From a virus (Duplodnaviria; Heunggongvirae; Uroviricota; Caudoviricetes), in the IMG/VR virus record IMGVR_UViG_2700989168_000009: DNA of 15,890 nucleotides, one strand, 5' to 3'. A program made the translations under genes and the position numbers. Positions 1 to 6,858 of the stretch are shown here, piece after piece (the first letter of the stretch is position 1; every line of letters starts with the position of its first letter). The notes below the pieces were generated by a model, which was not told the origin of the DNA, made no database searches, and saw nothing but the letters and a program-made list of their open reading frames with translations.

Positions 1-1230
1 ATGAGCAGAGCACTTAACAAACTGAGCGATACACAGCTGAGGAAAATCAACGGCACACCCGCCCAAAAAACAGCCTTTCTTAATGACGGTGGAAACCTGA
101 GCGTCAGGCATTCAACCAGTGGCCTTTTAACCTGGTATTTCACTTACAGGGCCGGAACGGGAAGGGGGGCACCACCGGAACGCATTAAGCTGGGAAATTA
201 TCCTGATCTGAGCCTGAAATCAGCCAGGGAAAAAGCCGCCCAGTGTCGCGCATGGCTGGCAGAGGGGAAAAATCCACGTCATGAGCTTAATTACACCGTA
301 CAGGAAGCGTTAAAGCCGGTAACGGTTGGCGATGCGCTCACCTACTGGCTTGAGTCGTACGCAAAGGAAAACCGCGTGGATTATGCCGCCCTGAAAAAGC
401 GCCTTAATAATCACGTAATACAGCACATTGGTGCTATGCCGCTGGATAAATGCGAGCTACGGCACTGGCTGGCCTGTTTTGACCAGGTGGCAAAGCGAAC
501 GCCTGTTACTGCCGGATTCTTGCTACAGACGTGCAAACAGGCGCTTAAGTTCTGCCGGAGGCGGCGCTATGCAATCAGCAACGTTCTTGATGATATGAGT
601 GTGGCGGACGTTGGGAAAAAACCGGATATAAGCGAGCGTGTCTTAAGCACCAAAGAACTGGGCGAATTATTGCAGGCACTGGACAAAAAAATATTCTCCC
701 CCTACTACATCGCGTTAATCCGCCTCCTGATTGTGTTCGGATGCCGGACGGTAGAACTGAGGTTATCGGAGATCAGCGAGTGGGATTTTACCGAAATGCT
801 CTGGACCGTGCCGAAAGAACACAGCAAAACGAAGGTGGCAATATTCCGGCCCATACCGGAAGCAATACTGCCGTTCGTCACGCAGCTGGTGGAGCAGAAC
901 AGGCACACGGGCTTATTGCTGGGGGAAGTGAAACAGGAAACAAGCGTGTCGCAGTACGGCAGATTAGCGCACAGGAGGCTAAATCACCCTCACTGGTCAC
1001 TACATGACATCCGGCGCACCTTTACAACGATGCTGAACGATTTAGGCGTGGATCCTCACGTCGTGGAGCAGCTTACAGGCCACCAGATGCCAGGAATGCA
1101 GCGAGTTTATAATCATTCCCGTTATCTGGATGCTAAACGCAATGCGCTGGATATGTGGACGGAGCGGTTAGGGATACTGGCGGGAACACATGAAAACGTA
1201 ACCACGCTACCAGTAGCCAGAAGAAAATAA
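1..1230 (+). CDS. int: Tyrosine recombinase / phage integrase (P4-type satellite integrase), 409 aa
   Basis: Complete ORF (ATG at 1, TAA at 1228-1230). C-terminal catalytic region with HDIRRTFTT (His-x-x-Arg) and YNHSRYLD (nucleophile Tyr) typical of the phage integrase family. Followed by alpA in the same orientation, as in P4-like islands and PICIs. Confidence 0.9.
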   Translation: MSRALNKLSDTQLRKINGTPAQKTAFLNDGGNLSVRHSTSGLLTWYFTYRAGTGRGAPPERIKLGNYPDLSLKSAREKAAQCRAWLAEGKNPRHELNYTVQEALKPVTVGDALTYWLESYAKENRVDYAALKKRLNNHVIQHIGAMPLDKCELRHWLACFDQVAKRTPVTAGFLLQTCKQALKFCRRRRYAISNVLDDMSVADVGKKPDISERVLSTKELGELLQALDKKIFSPYYIALIRLLIVFGCRTVELRLSEISEWDFTEMLWTVPKEHSKTKVAIFRPIPEAILPFVTQLVEQNRHTGLLLGEVKQETSVSQYGRLAHRRLNHPHWSLHDIRRTFTTMLNDLGVDPHVVEQLTGHQMPGMQRVYNHSRYLDAKRNALDMWTERLGILAGTHENVTTLPVARRK

Positions 1231-1270
1231 TTTTTTTCGTGTTTTTTCAGTATGCGCATACTGGATATGC

Positions 1271-1322
1271 GAACAGATACAACGTGCAACAATGAGCAAC
1301 AATGCGGAACAACTACGAACAA
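1271..1322 (+). repeat. Helically phased array of (C/G)AACAA direct repeats (10-bp period) in the int-alpA intergenic region; candidate regulator or excisionase binding sites
   Basis: CAACAA at 1287 and 1297, GAACAA at 1307 and 1317, degenerate GAACAG at 1271 and ACAACG at 1279. Shares the core AACAACGTG(C/G)AACAA with arrays at 6619-6644 and 14297-14312 (opposite strand). Confidence 0.55.
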
Positions 1323-1514
1323 GAGGTGAAAAAGTGTACAGATTTATAAGTAGCTGATTTTTAATGTGTTACTGATTTTTTATACACTAGCGAATCACTC
1401 TTTAAATAGCGAGAAAAAAGGCATGAAACAATATTTTATGCCTTTGTATTAACATGAATTTAAAGGATTTTATCCTGATTATTCCTCTTTCTGTAAACCA
1501 TACGGCCTCAACAT

Positions 1515-1543
1515 TTGCCAACTCTGAATCATCCTGACACAAT
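1515..1543 (+). promoter_or_regulatory. Candidate sigma70 promoter for alpA
   Basis: -35 TTGCCA (1515-1520), 17-bp spacer, -10 CACAAT (1538-1543), about 60 nt upstream of the alpA start. Sequence-only prediction. Confidence 0.35.
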
Positions 1544-1604
1544 CAGACACATCCCAACGCAATAGAACACGAAATAACTCTTTAAGAAACGAAAGGGGGC
1601 AATA

Positions 1605-1793
1605 GTGTTAAGCACTGATCGGTTTATACGTGAAAAAGAATGCGAAAAGCTAACAGGCCTTAGCCGCTCATGCCGCTACCGCCTGGAAAAGGCCGGACAA
1701 TTCCCATCACGTCGTAAACTTGGCGGTCGTTCCGTTGGCTGGTCTTTATCCGAGGTTCTGGCCTGGAAGGATAGCTGCAAGGCAGTTCATTAA
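1605..1793 (+). CDS. alpA: AlpA-family DNA-binding regulator / excisionase-like protein, 62 aa (GTG start)
   Basis: GTG at 1605 preceded by SD AGGGGG (1594-1599). Protein contains LTGLSRSCRYRLEKAGQFPSRRKLGGRSVGWSLSEVLAWK, the hallmark winged-helix signature of the AlpA/Xis family. Sits immediately after int. Confidence 0.85.
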   Translation: MLSTDRFIREKECEKLTGLSRSCRYRLEKAGQFPSRRKLGGRSVGWSLSEVLAWKDSCKAVH

Positions 1794-1939
1794 TCACGCT
1801 GGCGGCACGCAGCCGCCACACATCAATCATCTGAACACAGAGCTATAACCATGAAGATTGAATATACGCCAGAACGTGGGCGGGGATTCGTTCGCCCTGG
1901 TGAAACTGGAAAACCACAAAATTGGGGTTTTTCAGGCAT

Positions 1940-1969
1940 AAAAAAAGCGGCCCCGAAATGGAGCCGCCT
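1940..1969 (-). terminator. Rho-independent terminator-like hairpin on the minus strand
   Basis: Minus strand reads GGCGGCUCC-AUUUC-GGGGCCGCU followed by UUUUUUU (complement of the A-run at 1940-1946). Stem of 9 bp including 2 G-U pairs. Confidence 0.45.
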
Positions 1970-2062
1970 TTCTGAACAGATAACCCGCTGCGCCGTTTGT
2001 GTGTGTGATCCCAAACATAAGCACGGGGATGATAGCCGCTATCAGGCTGGTGGGCAATGCAA

Positions 2063-2239
2063 TCAGTCTGGTTCAGTGCGTTGCCATAACTGCGAAGTTC
2101 TCTCCTTTGATGAGTATTCTTTAAGGTACTTCTCAAGGGCAAAAGAACACGGCGCGAATCGTTCTGATTCATGCTCTTTCTTTCTGCGTCGTCTTTTTCG
2201 TGCAGGTGATGTTTTTTCGGTTGATTCTTCGTTGGTCAT
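2063..2239 (-). CDS. Hypothetical small basic protein, 58 aa (below ORF-track threshold)
   Basis: Minus-strand ORF MTNEESTEKTSPARKRRRRKKEHESERFAPCSFALEKYLKEYSSKERTSQLWQRTEPD, ending about 90 nt upstream of the minus-strand terminator at 1940-1969. No clear SD. Could be a shadow of non-coding sequence. Confidence 0.2.
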   Translation of the reverse strand: MTNEESTEKTSPARKRRRRKKEHESERFAPCSFALEKYLKEYSSKERTSQLWQRTEPD

Positions 2240-2296
2240 TGTGTGCGCCTGTAAAGCAATGCGCCGTAGTACCTCACACCACGGCGCTGATAGTTT

Positions 2297-2401
2297 TTAT
2301 CCTTTGGGTTCTATGCCGCGTTGCTGTAATTCTTTGCGGATTATTCGCTTTATCCAGGCAGCAAGAGAATCATCGCCGTCCTGTTGTTGTGCCTTTTCCA
2401 T
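2297..2401 (-). CDS. Hypothetical small protein, 34 aa
   Basis: Minus-strand ORF MEKAQQQDGDDSLAAWIKRIIRKELQQRGIEPKG with a weak SD-like GGGAAAAG upstream. It is divergent from the rightward replication operon. Very tentative. Confidence 0.15.
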   Translation of the reverse strand: MEKAQQQDGDDSLAAWIKRIIRKELQQRGIEPKG

Positions 2402-2469
2402 CTTTTCCCGTAAGTCAGGATCTAAACGGAACTGGAACGGAGGATTACCACGCCTTTCGTTTTTGTGTG

Positions 2470-2525
2470 TTGACACGTTAATTACACCTCAGGTAATGTA
2501 TTTATGTGTAGTGACACATTACACA
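2470..2525 (+). promoter_or_regulatory. Candidate promoter plus operator dyad for the rightward small-ORF/primase operon
   Basis: Consensus -35 TTGACA at 2470-2475 with a weak -10 (TAATGT, 2494-2499), followed directly by the dyad TGTGTA (2505-2510) - N9 - TACACA (2520-2525). Confidence 0.3.
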
Positions 2526-2543
2526 CAATCAACACAAAAAGCA

Positions 2544-2576
2544 AAGCCCCGCACTGTAGGAGCAGTAACGGGGCTT
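2544..2576 (+). promoter_or_regulatory. Stable stem-loop in the 5' leader of the rightward operon (attenuator or RNA element?)
   Basis: AAGCCCCG (2544-2551) pairs with CGGGGCTT (2569-2576), with an internal ACTG/CAGT sub-stem. On the minus strand the hairpin is followed by a T-run, so it could also act as a minus-strand terminator. Confidence 0.35.
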
Positions 2577-2605
2577 CTAACCAACAACGTAAACTAGGAG
2601 CCGTT

Positions 2606-2806
2606 ATGGTTGCCGTAAATCATATACCACACCTTGTACACACACAAACGGCCTTTGTGTGGCGTTTTCTGGCACTGAGTGCCGGAGAATCCCAAATCAT
2701 CCACGTAACCGCTTGGACGGAACGCGAAGCGCGTAGCCGTTGCCCGTCCGGTTGTGTTGCTGTATTCGCCGCCCGTATTCGTCAGGGGGAAACCTATGCA
2801 CAATAA
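2606..2806 (+). CDS. Hypothetical protein, 66 aa
   Basis: ATG 2606 preceded by SD GGAG (2597-2600). In frame with ORF-track entry 2504..2806; the internal start is preferred because of the SD and the upstream leader hairpin. Stop overlaps the next start. Confidence 0.45.
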   Translation: MVAVNHIPHLVHTQTAFVWRFLALSAGESQIIHVTAWTEREARSRCPSGCVAVFAARIRQGETYAQ

Positions 2807-3017
2807 AACCACACCGAACGCAGCAGCCGCCGCACTCACTACGCTGATGCACGCGCTTATTGATATTGAATGCACGGCAGAGCTTGCGCAGGGAGAAGAA
2901 CAGAAAGACCGGACACAGTTCGCCCTGGAATGTATCCGATACATCGCAACGCGGTCACTGAATGACGCTAAAAATATTCTTGTTGCCGATTGTGAAAATG
3001 GGGGGGGTTATGCGTGA
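2796..3017 (+). CDS. Hypothetical protein, 73 aa
   Basis: ATG 2796 preceded by GGGGGAA. In frame with ORF-track entry 2754..3017. Overlaps the previous stop, suggesting translational coupling. Confidence 0.45.
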   Translation: MHNKTTPNAAAAALTTLMHALIDIECTAELAQGEEQKDRTQFALECIRYIATRSLNDAKNILVADCENGGGYA

Positions 3018-3162
3018 TGATCGTTTTAATTCCCTGAAACAGGAATTTTCCGGCGTTCCTGATGATGCGGCTGATGCGCTTTCGTCAATGCCAGAACTTA
3101 TTAGAGCGGCTTTTTTCTTACTTTCCACGAGAGAATATAAATCAACGGGCTTGATGTACTGA
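3010..3162 (+). CDS. Hypothetical protein, 50 aa
   Basis: ATG 3010 preceded by a GGGGGG run, overlapping the previous stop (ATGCGTGA). In frame with ORF-track entry 2962..3162. Confidence 0.35.
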   Translation: MRDDRFNSLKQEFSGVPDDAADALSSMPELIRAAFFLLSTREYKSTGLMY

Positions 3163-3231
3163 ATATCGCCGCCGATTATGCTGATTTCGTGACAGAGGTT
3201 ATTTTAAGAAAAACGACGGACGGGGATTAAT

Positions 3232-3465
3232 ATGCGTGATATTTACCACGAAACAATAGACCGCGCATTTCTTGCACTTTCTCACAGTGAAAACATGCTG
3301 GAAATATTGCGCATATGGCTTGAAACACTTGGCGACAATGAACGCGACAAACAAAAATCAAGAATTGCCACGGCATTAATAACGCTTCTTGAGCCTGTAA
3401 TAATGGAACTGCAAGAAATAGATCTATTGCACGACAGATATAAAGAACAACACACCGGAGAATAA
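3232..3465 (+). CDS. Hypothetical protein, 77 aa
   Basis: ORF track 3232..3465. SD-like GGACGGGGA upstream. Same orientation as the operon. The overlapping minus ORF 3227..3511 is judged a shadow. Confidence 0.5.
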   Translation: MRDIYHETIDRAFLALSHSENMLEILRIWLETLGDNERDKQKSRIATALITLLEPVIMELQEIDLLHDRYKEQHTGE

Positions 3466-3470
3466 AAATA

Positions 3471-3770
3471 ATGAAACTTAAATATTCTGGCTTAACTGCC
3501 AGTGGCAACACTCACCCTAAATTTACGCGCGGTGATATTTACCGCGACCAGTACGGCGGCATGGTAACGATTAAAGGCGTGGCAGAACGGCGCATCACCT
3601 ACCGCCGTGAAGGTTACGAATATGATTGCGTGATGCCTGTTTATCAATTCCGGCGTGATTTCACGCTGGTACAGGCAGCGCCCCGCAGTAAACCAACCAG
3701 CAGGGAGAAAGCACGCGCCAATATTCAGGAAATAAAAAAGATGCTTAACGTATTCAGGGGTAAAAAATGA
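3471..3770 (+). CDS. Hypothetical protein, 99 aa
   Basis: ORF track 3471..3770. Stop TGA overlaps the primase ATG (ATGA at 3767-3770), suggesting translational coupling. Confidence 0.55.
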   Translation: MKLKYSGLTASGNTHPKFTRGDIYRDQYGGMVTIKGVAERRITYRREGYEYDCVMPVYQFRRDFTLVQAAPRSKPTSREKARANIQEIKKMLNVFRGKK

Positions 3771-5515
3771 AACTGGCACCGAACGTAAAAAAACAGCCAC
3801 GCGGAATAAAACACAAAGACACAGAGGTAATTATCTTTGCGGGTAGTGATGCCTGGTCGCACGCGAAACAATGGCAGGAGCAGGATGGCCCCGCATCCGG
3901 CGATAATGTGCCGCCTGTGTGGCTTGGGCCAAATCAGCTTGCCGAACTTGATGCACTGAAAATTGTTCCGGATGGAAAAAAACGCGTAAGGCTGTACCAG
4001 GCCGGAGAACTGGATTTGGTGGAGACCAAAAAGATTGGTCAGAAGCTGGCGGCGGCAGATATTCAGGACGCAAATTTTTACCCCGAAGGAATGCACGTCC
4101 AGAAGTGTGAAAACTGGCGGCGCTATCTGAATGCTGAGCGTGAAAATATTGCCGCAGGGCTTACCATGCCGGAGCAGAAAAATACGCAACTGGCACAAAT
4201 GGCAGACAGTGAGCGCGCGCAGCTGCTTGCCGAGCGCTTTGATGGCGTTTGTGTGCATCAGGAAAGTGAAATCGTTCACGTATGGCGCGGCGGGGTATGG
4301 TGTCCGGTCAGCACAATGGAACTTAGCCGCGAAATGGTGGTGATCTATTCAGAGCACAGGGCCACTTTCAGCAAGCGCGTAATCAATAACGCCGTGGAAG
4401 CGTTAAAAGTTATTGCCGAACCAATGGGCGAGCCGTCCGGCGATTTGCTGCCGTTCGCCAATGGTGCGCTTGACCTGAAAACGGGGGAATTTTCCCCGCA
4501 CACGCCGGAGAACTGGATCACCACGCACAACGGCATTGAGTACACGCCACCAGCACCAGGGGAGAACATCCGCGATAACGCGCTAAACTTTCATAAATGG
4601 CTTGAGCACGCAGCCGGAAAAGACCAGCGCAAGATGATGCGTATATGTGCCGCGCTGTACATGATTATGGCGAACCGGTACGACTGGCAGATGTTTATTG
4701 AGGCCACCGGAGACGGCGGGAGCGGTAAAAGTACATTCACACACATAGCCAGCCTTCTGGCAGGGAAACAGAACACGGTAAGCGCTGAAATGACATCGCT
4801 TGATGATGCTGGTGGACGTGCGCAGGTTGTCGGGAGTCGTCTTATCGTCCTGGCTGACCAGCCGAAATATACAGGCGAAGGAACGGGCATCAAGAAAATC
4901 ACGGGCGGTGACCCCGTGGAAATTAACCCGAAATACGAAAAGCGTTTCACGGCTGTAATCAGGGCGGTGGTGCTGGCGACCAACAATAACCCGATGATAT
5001 TCACCGAACGGGCCGGAGGTGTGGCACGTCGTCGCGTGATTTTCCGTTTCGACAATATCGTTAGTGAGGCCGAAAAAGACAGGGAGCTACCGGAAAAGAT
5101 TGCGGCTGAAATCCCTGTCATTATCCGCCGATTGCTGGCGAACTTTACCGACTCTGAGAAAGCACGGGCTTTACTACTGGAACAGCGTGACGGTGATGAA
5201 GCTCTGGCAATAAAGCAACAGACGGATCCGGTTATTGAGTTTTGCCAGTTCCTGAATTTTCTGGAGGAAGCACGCGGCCTGATGATGGGCGGCGGTGGCG
5301 ATTCAGTGAAGTACACGACCAGAAACAGCCTTTACCGCGTCTATCTGGCGTTTATGGCGTACGCAGGCAGGAGCAAACCGCTAAACGTAAATGACTTTGG
5401 CAAGGCTATGAAGCCAGCCGCGAAAGTTTACGGACATGAATATATTACGCGGAAAGTTAAGGGAGTAACGCAGACTAACGCAATAACAACAGACGAGTGC
5501 GACGCGTTTTTATAA
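3767..5515 (+). CDS. Replication initiator: primase / SF3 (P4/D5-type) helicase, 582 aa (PICI pri-rep-like)
   Basis: 582-aa ORF with Walker A GDGGSGKST (nt about 4709-4735) and a downstream hydrophobic stretch LIVLADQ as a Walker-B-like element, in the arrangement of the P4-family primase C-terminal helicase domain. An iteron origin lies immediately downstream, as in PICIs. Confidence 0.85.
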   Translation: MKLAPNVKKQPRGIKHKDTEVIIFAGSDAWSHAKQWQEQDGPASGDNVPPVWLGPNQLAELDALKIVPDGKKRVRLYQAGELDLVETKKIGQKLAAADIQDANFYPEGMHVQKCENWRRYLNAERENIAAGLTMPEQKNTQLAQMADSERAQLLAERFDGVCVHQESEIVHVWRGGVWCPVSTMELSREMVVIYSEHRATFSKRVINNAVEALKVIAEPMGEPSGDLLPFANGALDLKTGEFSPHTPENWITTHNGIEYTPPAPGENIRDNALNFHKWLEHAAGKDQRKMMRICAALYMIMANRYDWQMFIEATGDGGSGKSTFTHIASLLAGKQNTVSAEMTSLDDAGGRAQVVGSRLIVLADQPKYTGEGTGIKKITGGDPVEINPKYEKRFTAVIRAVVLATNNNPMIFTERAGGVARRRVIFRFDNIVSEAEKDRELPEKIAAEIPVIIRRLLANFTDSEKARALLLEQRDGDEALAIKQQTDPVIEFCQFLNFLEEARGLMMGGGGDSVKYTTRNSLYRVYLAFMAYAGRSKPLNVNDFGKAMKPAAKVYGHEYITRKVKGVTQTNAITTDECDAFL

Positions 5516-6702: not shown

Positions 6703-6828
6703 CCAGGACGCTGGGGCCACTTTCCCGCCTGTTAATGTGCTCGCCAATATTCATTACCAGGCGGGAAAACGATCGGTGCGATTACTGATTTCCTTATGAA
6801 AAACGGTTGAGTGTTTGCCGCGTCCTGG
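6703..6828 (+). other. Structured leader upstream of the capsid gene: nested inverted repeats
   Basis: Perfect 11-bp inverted repeat TTTCCCGCCTG (6721-6731) / CAGGCGGGAAA (6758-6768), enclosed by a 9-bp inverted repeat CCAGGACGC (6703-6711) / GCGTCCTGG (6820-6828). Confidence 0.4.
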
Positions 6829-6858
6829 AGTTCCTTACTTAACCCCAGGACTTTTTTT

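Follow-up and report, generated by a model that had tools for sequence, protein, structure and literature searches.

The DNA analysed here (“the window”: 15,890 nt, IMG/VR record IMGVR_UViG_2700989168_000009, Caudoviricetes) is a capsid-forming phage-inducible chromosomal island (cf-PICI) of the AlpA type, integrated between roxA and phoQ. By its Pfam matches and open reading frame (ORF) map it has the make-up that defines such elements: int, alpA and primase genes together with genes for a capsid, a protease, a portal, a head-completion protein and a large terminase within about 10-15 kb, and no tail or lysis genes. Our subject is the interval 1794-2605, between alpA and the icd-like gene that opens the replication operon. 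A first-pass annotation, made from the sequence alone, had seen no convincing gene there and had suggested a regulatory switch built from a small repressor, an antisense or leader RNA, or an operator. We found instead that the minus strand carries a conserved gene for a 59-aa ribbon-helix-helix (RHH) protein and a 58-aa gene (ORF58), both with database homologues (Table 1). The suggested switch, on the other hand, gained support when homologous islands were compared. Both a conserved small ORF and a conserved RNA structure emerged, in the form of a divergent RHH gene, operators that change with the type of repressor, and a covarying antisense RNA. On balance, we lean towards reading the interval as the immunity and induction switch of the island.

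The RHH gene starts with GTG, preceded by a GAGG Shine-Dalgarno sequence. Its product has 117 database homologues (51-98% identity) in Escherichia, Citrobacter, Serratia, Pantoea, Yersinia, Xenorhabdus, Frischella, Mannheimia and other hosts, with conserved length and start; Xenorhabdus has an ATG at the same position. R17, G34, D35 and the motif KR..RKEL are invariant in the protein alignment, G34-D35-x-S37 is conserved, and the protein matched the Arc-like repressors of PHROG 228 (E = 2e-6). An AlphaFold model has helices at residues 20-33 and 38-53 with a predicted local distance difference test score (pLDDT) above 90. The segment FQFRL is unstructured in this monomer, as expected since the strand forms only in the dimer. 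The modelled protein appears to combine the features by which we recognised the RHH fold, namely an N-terminal β-strand, two helices, a short G-x-S/T-type turn and a length of about 45-60 residues. A Foldseek comparison with the PDB returned 30 matches, mostly RHH proteins and nearly all of the best ones so, every E-value being above 1; these neighbors were NikR, Arc, CopG, ParD, ParG, MazE9 and AmrZ, at root-mean-square deviations of 0.6-1.0 Å. No meaningful match came from a PDB sequence search with the RHH profile, and Pfam, run on all candidate ORFs, matched neither the RHH protein nor ORF58 nor the long ORFs. We regard the 59-aa protein as a candidate immunity repressor.

Two tiny minus-strand ORFs had been noted in this interval. 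The 58-aa one (2239..2063) stands as ORF58, whereas the 34-aa one is only the C-terminal part of the 59-aa gene, read from an internal ATG. The same 34-aa fragment is found in several database entries, and the GTG-initiated gene is unannotated in strains where the opposite, plus-strand frame is annotated. Some homologues are called “HicB family” by the Joint Genome Institute (JGI). Proteins of related cassettes carry the label of the YlcI/YnfO family (NCBIfam NF041551, curated cut-off 30 bits): the protein of a second cassette in the E. coli relative L002 scored 60.6 bits, and the Prokaryotic Genome Annotation Pipeline (PGAP) gives the name “YlcI/YnfO family protein” to the 59-aa protein of CFT073. 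The RHH cassette of the window and the YlcI/YnfO cassettes are related and represent different subfamilies.

The C-terminal helix and tail of the RHH protein are near constant (WIKRIIRKELQxRGIEPKG). Across repressor types, that of O157 included, W[IL]K..[IL]R.EL..RGIEPKG is almost invariant while the DNA-reading strands and the operators differ. This C terminus could be a common oligomerisation surface or a docking site for a shared inducer.

A synteny scan limited to a single genome of each species yielded at least 80 loci, whose hosts belong to the Enterobacterales, Orbaceae, Pasteurellaceae and Aeromonadales. Where the neighbors were recognisable, the RHH gene was divergent from an icd-like/primase operon and convergent with alpA; its distance from icd was about 126-145 nt and varied by non-multiples of three. 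The arrangement was the same in EcCICFT073, a prototype that also occupies the roxA-phoQ site, in an O157:H7 element of EcCIEDL933 type, and in “Pasteurella phage Pmp8”, deposited as a phage, whose 15 kb carry a gene set like that of a cf-PICI. A Shigella flexneri locus (L004) had identical proteins for every gene compared.

Two relatives differ in their cassettes. L002 (NZ_CP027579.1, 3029-4502) has two tandem cassettes, one with a 59-aa RHH gene and a 67-aa gene and the other with a 101-aa YlcI/YnfO gene and a 75-aa gene; it looks like a duplicated or double-immunity form of the switch. In Citrobacter amalonaticus (L013, 4238-4681) a gene for a 147-aa predicted membrane protein replaces ORF58 downstream of the RHH gene. 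ORF58 itself, an accessory gene, has 24 homologues, and all the named ones are from E. coli or Shigella; it is missing from most loci of other genera. An intrinsic terminator ends the RHH/ORF58 unit, and the stem-loop between the two genes is possibly an attenuator or a 3' stabiliser.

RHH proteins read DNA through their N-terminal strand. Among the homologues this strand comes in discrete types, each paired with its own repeated palindrome in the intergenic region. The strand of the window, PPFQFRL, goes with GTAATGTGT/ACACATTAC plus GTGTAAT. The other operators each occur twice: ATGGTAATTACCAT with P[PQ][YF]QMRL, TTGTAATTACA with DQYQIRL, AGGTGACCAC with PQFRMRI (O157), AGTGTCAGACA with NKQIAFRV, and AGGTGTGGCCC with the CFT073 type. 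In an alignment of 20 type-A intergenic regions, a block lying between the operators and the icd start is conserved from E. coli to Gilliamella. One operator copy always lies just 5' of the RHH start codon, where it forms the spacer of a TTGACA promoter on the opposite strand; in the window, the operator cluster (2479..2524) overlies this spacer and both -10 hexamers. GTGTAAT is not enriched in the window as a whole, where it has 4 copies, a number reached by 19 of 200 shuffles; what is notable is only that two copies, at 2481-2487 and 2518-2524, cluster in the operator region. The pairing of strand types with operator repeats hints that the RHH protein may bind these repeats.

Promoters for icd, for the RHH gene and for an antisense RNA are predicted here from their conservation across loci. 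The TTGACA of the icd promoter is encoded, on the opposite strand, by codons 1-3 of the RHH gene (Met/Val-Ser-Thr). TTGAC lay opposite these codons in 63 of 69 distinct loci, and a TAnnnT hexamer lay about 16-18 nt downstream of the TTGAC position, likewise in 63 of 69. The RHH promoter has invariant TTG and GTAATGT columns in the type-A alignment, and its -35 hexamer sits inside the U-run of the antisense-RNA terminator described below. The icd and RHH promoters are interleaved mirror images, so their predicted starts are only a few bases apart.

The predicted antisense RNA is about 75 nt long and fully complementary to the icd 5' leader, including the Shine-Dalgarno sequence and the start codon. 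Its structure was derived with RNAalifold from an alignment of 70 distinct sequences covering all types, and consists of a 5' domain and a long hairpin followed by a T-run. Pairing was possible in 96.1% of the alignment cells; column shuffles gave 86.6%, and slid partners about 40%. Compensatory changes occurred in 14 of 20 pairs (129 cells), and none of 500 shuffles reached any of these measures. The alignment also discriminates between the strands. It holds 213 G·U pairs when read on the RHH-sense (minus) strand as compared to 10 on the icd-sense strand, where the G·U positions of the minus strand would be mismatches, and the U-run after the hairpin 2577..2543 exists on the minus strand only. 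The hairpin at 2544-2576 had been taken for a leader structure of the plus strand. Given a conserved structure that is specific to the minus strand, it appears rather to have been selected on that strand and therefore to be the terminator of a cis-antisense RNA. In sum, three features by which such an RNA can be recognised were present: a conserved strand-specific structure, a GC-rich hairpin with a U-run, and overlap with the ribosome-binding site of the target.

The RNA module extends beyond its terminator. In 69 of the 70 sequences a TAnnnT hexamer lies 7-8 nt upstream of an invariant A, though the overlapping Icd residues vary, and this hexamer belongs to a predicted promoter that lies within the coding part of icd. 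In 51 of 70 sequences the 5' hairpin has CUCC or CCUC, which is complementary to the Shine-Dalgarno sequence of icd, in its loop. From the alignment we built a covariance model, which, searched against the loci already gathered in this analysis, gave one match per RHH cassette, always on the minus-type strand; the loci matched include ones on which it had not been trained (CFT073, O157, Pmp8 and both L002 cassettes). The two L002 matches lie one beside each cassette. Rfam gave no C4, CI or IsrK match in the whole window at the gathering threshold, nor in 1200-4000 at E <= 1, and because of this we do not regard the antisense RNA as an immunity RNA of the P4/P1 C4 type.

Two other candidates were rejected. 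Rfam matches to the rnk leader, to STnc50 and to a counter-transcribed RNA (ctRNA) were chance matches driven by terminator hairpins. Both the window and O157 have in-frame extensions upstream of icd; a coding icd leader was rejected because the RHH-to-icd distance varies by non-multiples of three and the region has 1-2-nt indels.

The plus strand of the interval contains a long open frame that bridges alpA and icd. A gap of 57 nt separates it from the alpA stop and one of 8 nt from the icd ATG; its stop codon, TAG, shares bases with the Shine-Dalgarno sequence of icd. Both minus-strand genes lie antisense to this frame, which also spans all the promoters and hairpins. The first-pass annotation had judged this ORF (248 aa) and a minus-strand ORF of 109 aa (1843-2172) to be non-protein-like in composition. 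Neither has a Pfam match, and the bridging product, rich in Cys, Ser and Arg, looks unlike a protein. Nevertheless, between the alpA stop and the icd start of the window, 267 of 270 codons are open in one frame, compared to 13 and 22 stops in the other frames, and none of 300 dinucleotide shuffles reached the length of the bridging frame. Corresponding counts of open codons were 311/312 in Citrobacter L013, 140/150 in Xenorhabdus and 150/153 in Erwinia (0-2 of 300 shuffles). In L013 the frame stays open across the different 147-aa antisense gene, as part of a 596-codon ORF. CFT073 has a 428-codon open frame fused to icd, and the O157 frame is likewise open.

Of 76 distinct loci, 33 would be expected by synonymous-codon permutation to have the frame open over the RHH gene, and 59 do. 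The frame remains open through the AT-rich operator region in the unrelated types A, B, C and, as read by hand, type D of O157, where the other two frames close within 2-57 nt. At compact loci it starts no more than about 30 nt after the alpA stop, and it ends either 8-12 nt before the icd ATG or in a fusion with icd. The terminator scan found no plus-strand terminator in 1794-2605. Codon-position periodicity was abandoned as a measure because the third positions of the plus frame coincide with those of both minus-strand genes. These data suggest that a plus-strand frame is kept open over the whole distance between the end of alpA and the start of icd, even where the intervening cassettes are unrelated.

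In P4, the eta frame follows an alpA homologue and crosses the immunity determinants, and its translation allows transcripts from an upstream inducible promoter to escape termination (PMC10111431). The frame described here likewise is an ORF that runs from the alpA/vis stop across the immunity region to the replication genes. P4 had been cited as a loose precedent for the interval on account of its RNA-based immunity; that part of the comparison failed in the Rfam search, while the likeness of the long plus-strand ORF to eta holds. As a working hypothesis, the bridging frame might have an eta-like role in translation-driven read-through. RefSeq annotates the plus frame as a 247-aa “hypothetical protein” (WP_001304194.1) in O157:H7 ATCC 43894 (L084, 2804-3547), and PGAP annotates it as an “Icd-like, missing C-terminus” pseudogene in other strains (L001 and L003, 2852-3445).

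All the sequence features listed by the first-pass annotation were recovered where it had placed them, and its three hairpins (1800-1818, 1940-1969 and 2544-2576) fold far better than shuffled sequence.

Table 1. Features of the interval between alpA and icd, followed by the other features of the window. Predicted elements are marked as such.
Feature	Position	Strand	Basis and remarks
RHH gene, 59 aa, GTG start	2297..2476	minus	homologues, alignment, AlphaFold model, PHROG, synteny
Predicted operator cluster, GTGTAAT/ATTACAC-type repeats	2479-2489, 2491-2501, 2514-2524		conserved block in type-A alignment
Dyad TGTGTA-N9-TACACA	2505-2525		
Predicted icd/replication-operon promoter	2470..2499	plus	-35 TTGACA 2470-2475; -10 TAATGT 2494-2499
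Predicted RHH promoter	2516..2544	minus	-35 TTGCTT 2544..2539; -10 TAATGT 2521..2516
Predicted cis-antisense RNA to icd leader	2536..2611	minus	covariation; fold -30.5 kcal/mol, z = -3.8
Antisense RNA, predicted 5' domain	2611..2579	minus	anti-Shine-Dalgarno CUCC in loop, 2600..2597
Antisense RNA, predicted terminator hairpin, then U-run	2577..2543	minus	
Predicted antisense-RNA promoter, inside icd	2619..2647	minus	-35 TTGTGT 2647..2642; -10 TATGAT 2624..2619
Bridging open frame, 248 codons	1851..2597	plus	open-frame comparison; no Pfam match
ORF58, 58 aa, accessory gene	2063..2239	minus	basic N-terminus; conserved HESERFAPCAFALE motif; phrog_21027, E = 3e-12
Intrinsic terminator of RHH/ORF58 unit	1940..1969	minus	13-bp stem + UUUUUUU; -22.4 kcal/mol, z = -3.2
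Stem-loop between RHH gene and ORF58	2261..2287	minus	11-bp stem; -19.3 kcal/mol, z = -3.4; flagged by terminator scan
Integrase gene	1-1230		
alpA	1605..1793	plus	Pfam Phage_AlpA, E = 5e-18
GC hairpin TGGCGGC-ACGCA-GCCGCCA	1800..1818	plus	7-bp stem, no U-run; -16.3 kcal/mol, z = -3.8
icd-like gene, first of replication operon	2606..2806	plus	NCBIfam phage_ICD_like, E = 6e-18; phrog_29966, E = 5e-32
DUF4222 gene	3471-3770		
D5-type primase gene	3767-5515		
HK97-type capsid, prohead protease, portal, head-completion protein, HNH, small and large terminase genes	further downstream		
phoQ	14430-15890	minus	

A perfect 15-nt inverted repeat (GCCGTTTGTGTGTGT at 1992-2006 and ACACACACAAACGGC at 2638-2652) flanks the whole module, that is ORF58, the RHH gene, the operators, the antisense RNA and the icd start. 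Its right arm includes the -35 hexamer of the antisense-RNA promoter, and a related sequence, CGTTTTTGTGTGT at 2458-2470, precedes the TTGACA. The repeat could be a scar of cassette exchange, a protein-binding site or a means of long-range RNA pairing.

AlpA is the activator of PICI induction in Gram-negative bacteria: it activates the alpA promoter, the gene after alpA needs it for expression, and its overexpression leads to replication of the island (PMC6092414). From the genes, the structures and their conservation and covariation, we infer the following course of binding, repression, transcript ends and translation. In the quiescent island, RHH dimers would occupy the operators and shut the replication-operon promoter, and would probably autoregulate the interleaved RHH promoter as well. 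Transcripts that escape would be silenced by the antisense RNA, whose anti-Shine-Dalgarno loop would pair with the icd ribosome-binding site. Once a helper phage turns alpA on, transcription from the alpA promoter would read through the interval. Ribosomes on the bridging frame would shield this transcript from polarity, melt the hairpins and terminate 8 nt short of the icd ATG; coupling would then allow translation of icd and the replication genes even in the presence of the antisense RNA. The read-through transcript would also be antisense to the RHH mRNA, and its synthesis would collide with transcription of the RHH gene, so that the switch would be locked ON.

Several observations weigh against this model. 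A consensus promoter scan flagged none of the three proposed promoters, and their -10 hexamers are weak, with 3 of 6 consensus matches each. The Foldseek E-values lie above 1, the domain being so small, and hhalign placed the RHH profile against the Arc sequence in the correct register but with a probability of only 10%. The RHH protein of the window scored 20 bits (E = 5e-4) against the YlcI/YnfO family, under the cut-off. As to the bridging frame, 17 of the 76 loci have it closed where it crosses the RHH gene. Long antisense shadow ORFs occur commonly in the window, for instance one of 241 aa opposite the primase, and antisense frames are stop-poor for any gene, so part of the length of the frame needs no selection. 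The loci are also phylogenetically related, and the shuffle statistics overstate their independence. Finally, the RHH protein could regulate its own cassette only.

This last point leads to the alternative that we find doubtful rather than implausible. The RHH gene and its operators would form a self-contained, autoregulated cassette in the variable zone of the island that possibly controls only itself and ORF58, the hairpin 2577..2543 would merely insulate it from antisense transcription, and the replication operon would be under AlpA alone. The alpA-to-replication zone has been described as dynamic (PMC10111431), YlcI/YnfO and HicB-like genes count as accessory in recent surveys (PMC13612085), and L002 has tandem cassettes. 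Against this, one operator copy always lies in the spacer of the outward-facing TTGACA promoter; the RNA module has, besides the terminator, a 5' domain, an anti-Shine-Dalgarno loop and a -10 box that is conserved; and the arrangement is kept across four bacterial orders.

Another possibility is that the 248-aa plus-strand ORF encodes a functional protein and that this protein, not the act of translation, is what matters. The coding-sequence annotation of WP_001304194.1, the conserved openness of the frame and the similarity of its first ~16 residues in CFT073 (EY.PE.GRGFVRP, with several third-position changes) speak for such a protein. Yet the ORF has no Pfam match (PHROGs were not scanned for it), its composition is the Cys/Ser/Arg-rich one noted above, and its sequence changes completely with each change of antisense cassette, at lengths of 122-596 codons. 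Substitutions relative to L002 are spread 5:3:4 over the three codon positions, and PGAP calls the frame a pseudogene in other strains. We consider a functional protein improbable.

It could also be speculated that RHH and ORF58 form a type II toxin-antitoxin or addiction module that stabilises the island, given the order of the genes (RHH first, small gene downstream), a weak VapB-antitoxin match (E = 0.012) and the “HicB family” label that JGI gives to several homologues. This is slightly less probable still: ORF58 has no toxin-family match in Pfam, PHROG or NCBIfam and is limited to relatives in E. coli and Shigella, and most loci have the RHH gene alone, followed directly by the end of alpA. 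Least probable of all is the reading of 2544-2576 as a structure of the plus-strand leader, or as an immunity RNA of P4/P1 type (C4/CI) processed from the icd leader. The hairpin does lie within the predicted leader, the plus strand folds too (-24.9 kcal/mol, z = -2.7) and some Gram-negative PICIs carry C4/IsrK-type RNAs (PMC10111431). However, there was no Rfam C4/IsrK match even at the relaxed threshold, the plus strand would be left with 258 non-pairs, and the U-run and covariance-model matches are confined to the minus strand.

The design of the proposed immunity and induction switch combines known elements from P22 immI, P1 immI, P4 and pMV158. The immI region of P22 comprises mnt, the promoters Pmnt and Pant, arc, ant and the antisense RNA sar, and its RHH repressors act on palindromic operators in two interleaved, opposed promoters. 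It shares with the switch proposed here a small RHH repressor, interleaved promoters and a short cis-antisense RNA over a ribosome-binding site. On the other hand, P22 immI has two RHH proteins where we found one and controls an antirepressor gene rather than an icd-like/primase operon; here the predicted antisense promoter lies inside the target gene, and no sequence or Rfam relationship was detected. P1 immI (c4 RNA, icd, ant) also has an icd-type first gene whose ribosome-binding site is targeted by a small RNA. There, however, C4 is excised from the transcript of its own target and works in trans through short stretches of complementarity, whereas here the RNA would come from the opposite strand. 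In pMV158, CopG and RNAII place a replication gene under an RHH repressor and an antisense RNA with an intrinsic terminator, but pMV158 is a plasmid, its copG is co-transcribed with rep and not divergent, and it has no bridging frame and no AlpA-type activator.

The immunity region of P4 (vis, eta/kil, CI RNA, alpha primase) belongs to the same kind of element and has the same gene order, from alpA/vis through a long ORF to the replication genes; P4 relies on a C4-family RNA that acts on transcription termination (PMC10111431), in contrast to what appears to be a protein repressor with a cis-antisense RNA here. Stl/Rpr of Gram-positive PICIs is also encoded divergently from the replication operon (PMC6092414). 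Unlike the RHH gene, however, stl has the same orientation as int; in the present island the order is int, alpA and then the repressor gene, which converges on alpA. The 59-aa RHH protein has no detectable sequence relation to Stl, and induction of the present islands has been published as proceeding via the activator AlpA and not via a phage antirepressor (PMC6092414).

Directly 3' of the alpA stop is the hairpin 1800-1818, which is kept in CFT073 and L002 with one stem change that gives a G·U pair on the plus strand; it is possibly a 3' stabiliser or a processing site of the alpA transcript. Upstream of alpA, the int-alpA spacer (1231-1604, 374 nt) contains the overlapping direct repeats CGTGCAACAATGAGCAA / TGAGCAACAATGCGGAA at 1283-1309 and two promoter-like sites at 1449 and 1515, and is presumably the AlpA-autoactivated alpA promoter region. 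In the structural genes, an in-frame TGA at 7684-7686 (GCG GTC TGA GTG GTT) splits the major capsid gene (6811-8016): the first ORF matches positions 1-166 of 280 of Pfam Phage_capsid, and the rest lies in the next ORF (109 aa, same frame). Without read-through of this stop, the present copy of the cf-PICI may not be able to make a capsid of its own. Runs of N (X in the translations) occur at 8600-8660, 10390-10530, 10860-10920 and 11355-11405, within the protease, head-tail and HNH/terminase-small-subunit region, and because they interrupt the genes from protease to small terminase these could not be fully assessed.

The conserved control module of the interval could be the repressor system of Gram-negative phage-inducible islands that has so far escaped identification. 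More tentatively, and with less than even confidence, we propose that AlpA-type PICIs of Gammaproteobacteria, including EcCICFT073 and EcCIEDL933, share a three-layer immunity switch made of RHH master repressors in exchangeable specificity types, a new and widely conserved family of cis-antisense RNAs directed at the first replication-operon gene, and a non-protein-like frame, antisense to the repressor gene, whose openness would let AlpA-driven read-through transcripts override both. We found no description of an RHH protein, a repressor or an antisense RNA for these islands in the literature, although subscription journals lay mostly outside the search and an earlier report is possible; the small genes of the alpA-replication zone have been listed as accessory, and YlcI/YnfO have been given no function (PMC13612085).

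If the proposal is true, it would supply the missing negative half of the PICI circuit and would explain both the silence of the islands and their induction by AlpA. It would define a new RNA family without an Rfam counterpart, and would flag a recurrent annotation error in which the plus frame is recorded as a protein or pseudogene while the GTG-initiated repressor gene is missed or cut to 34 aa. The prototypes EcCICFT073 and EcCIEDL933, which are experimentally tractable, contain the circuit, so that existing strains would allow a direct test of it. The type-specific pairs of repressor and operator suggest immunity groups among co-resident satellites, which would be relevant to the engineering of PICIs as delivery vehicles.

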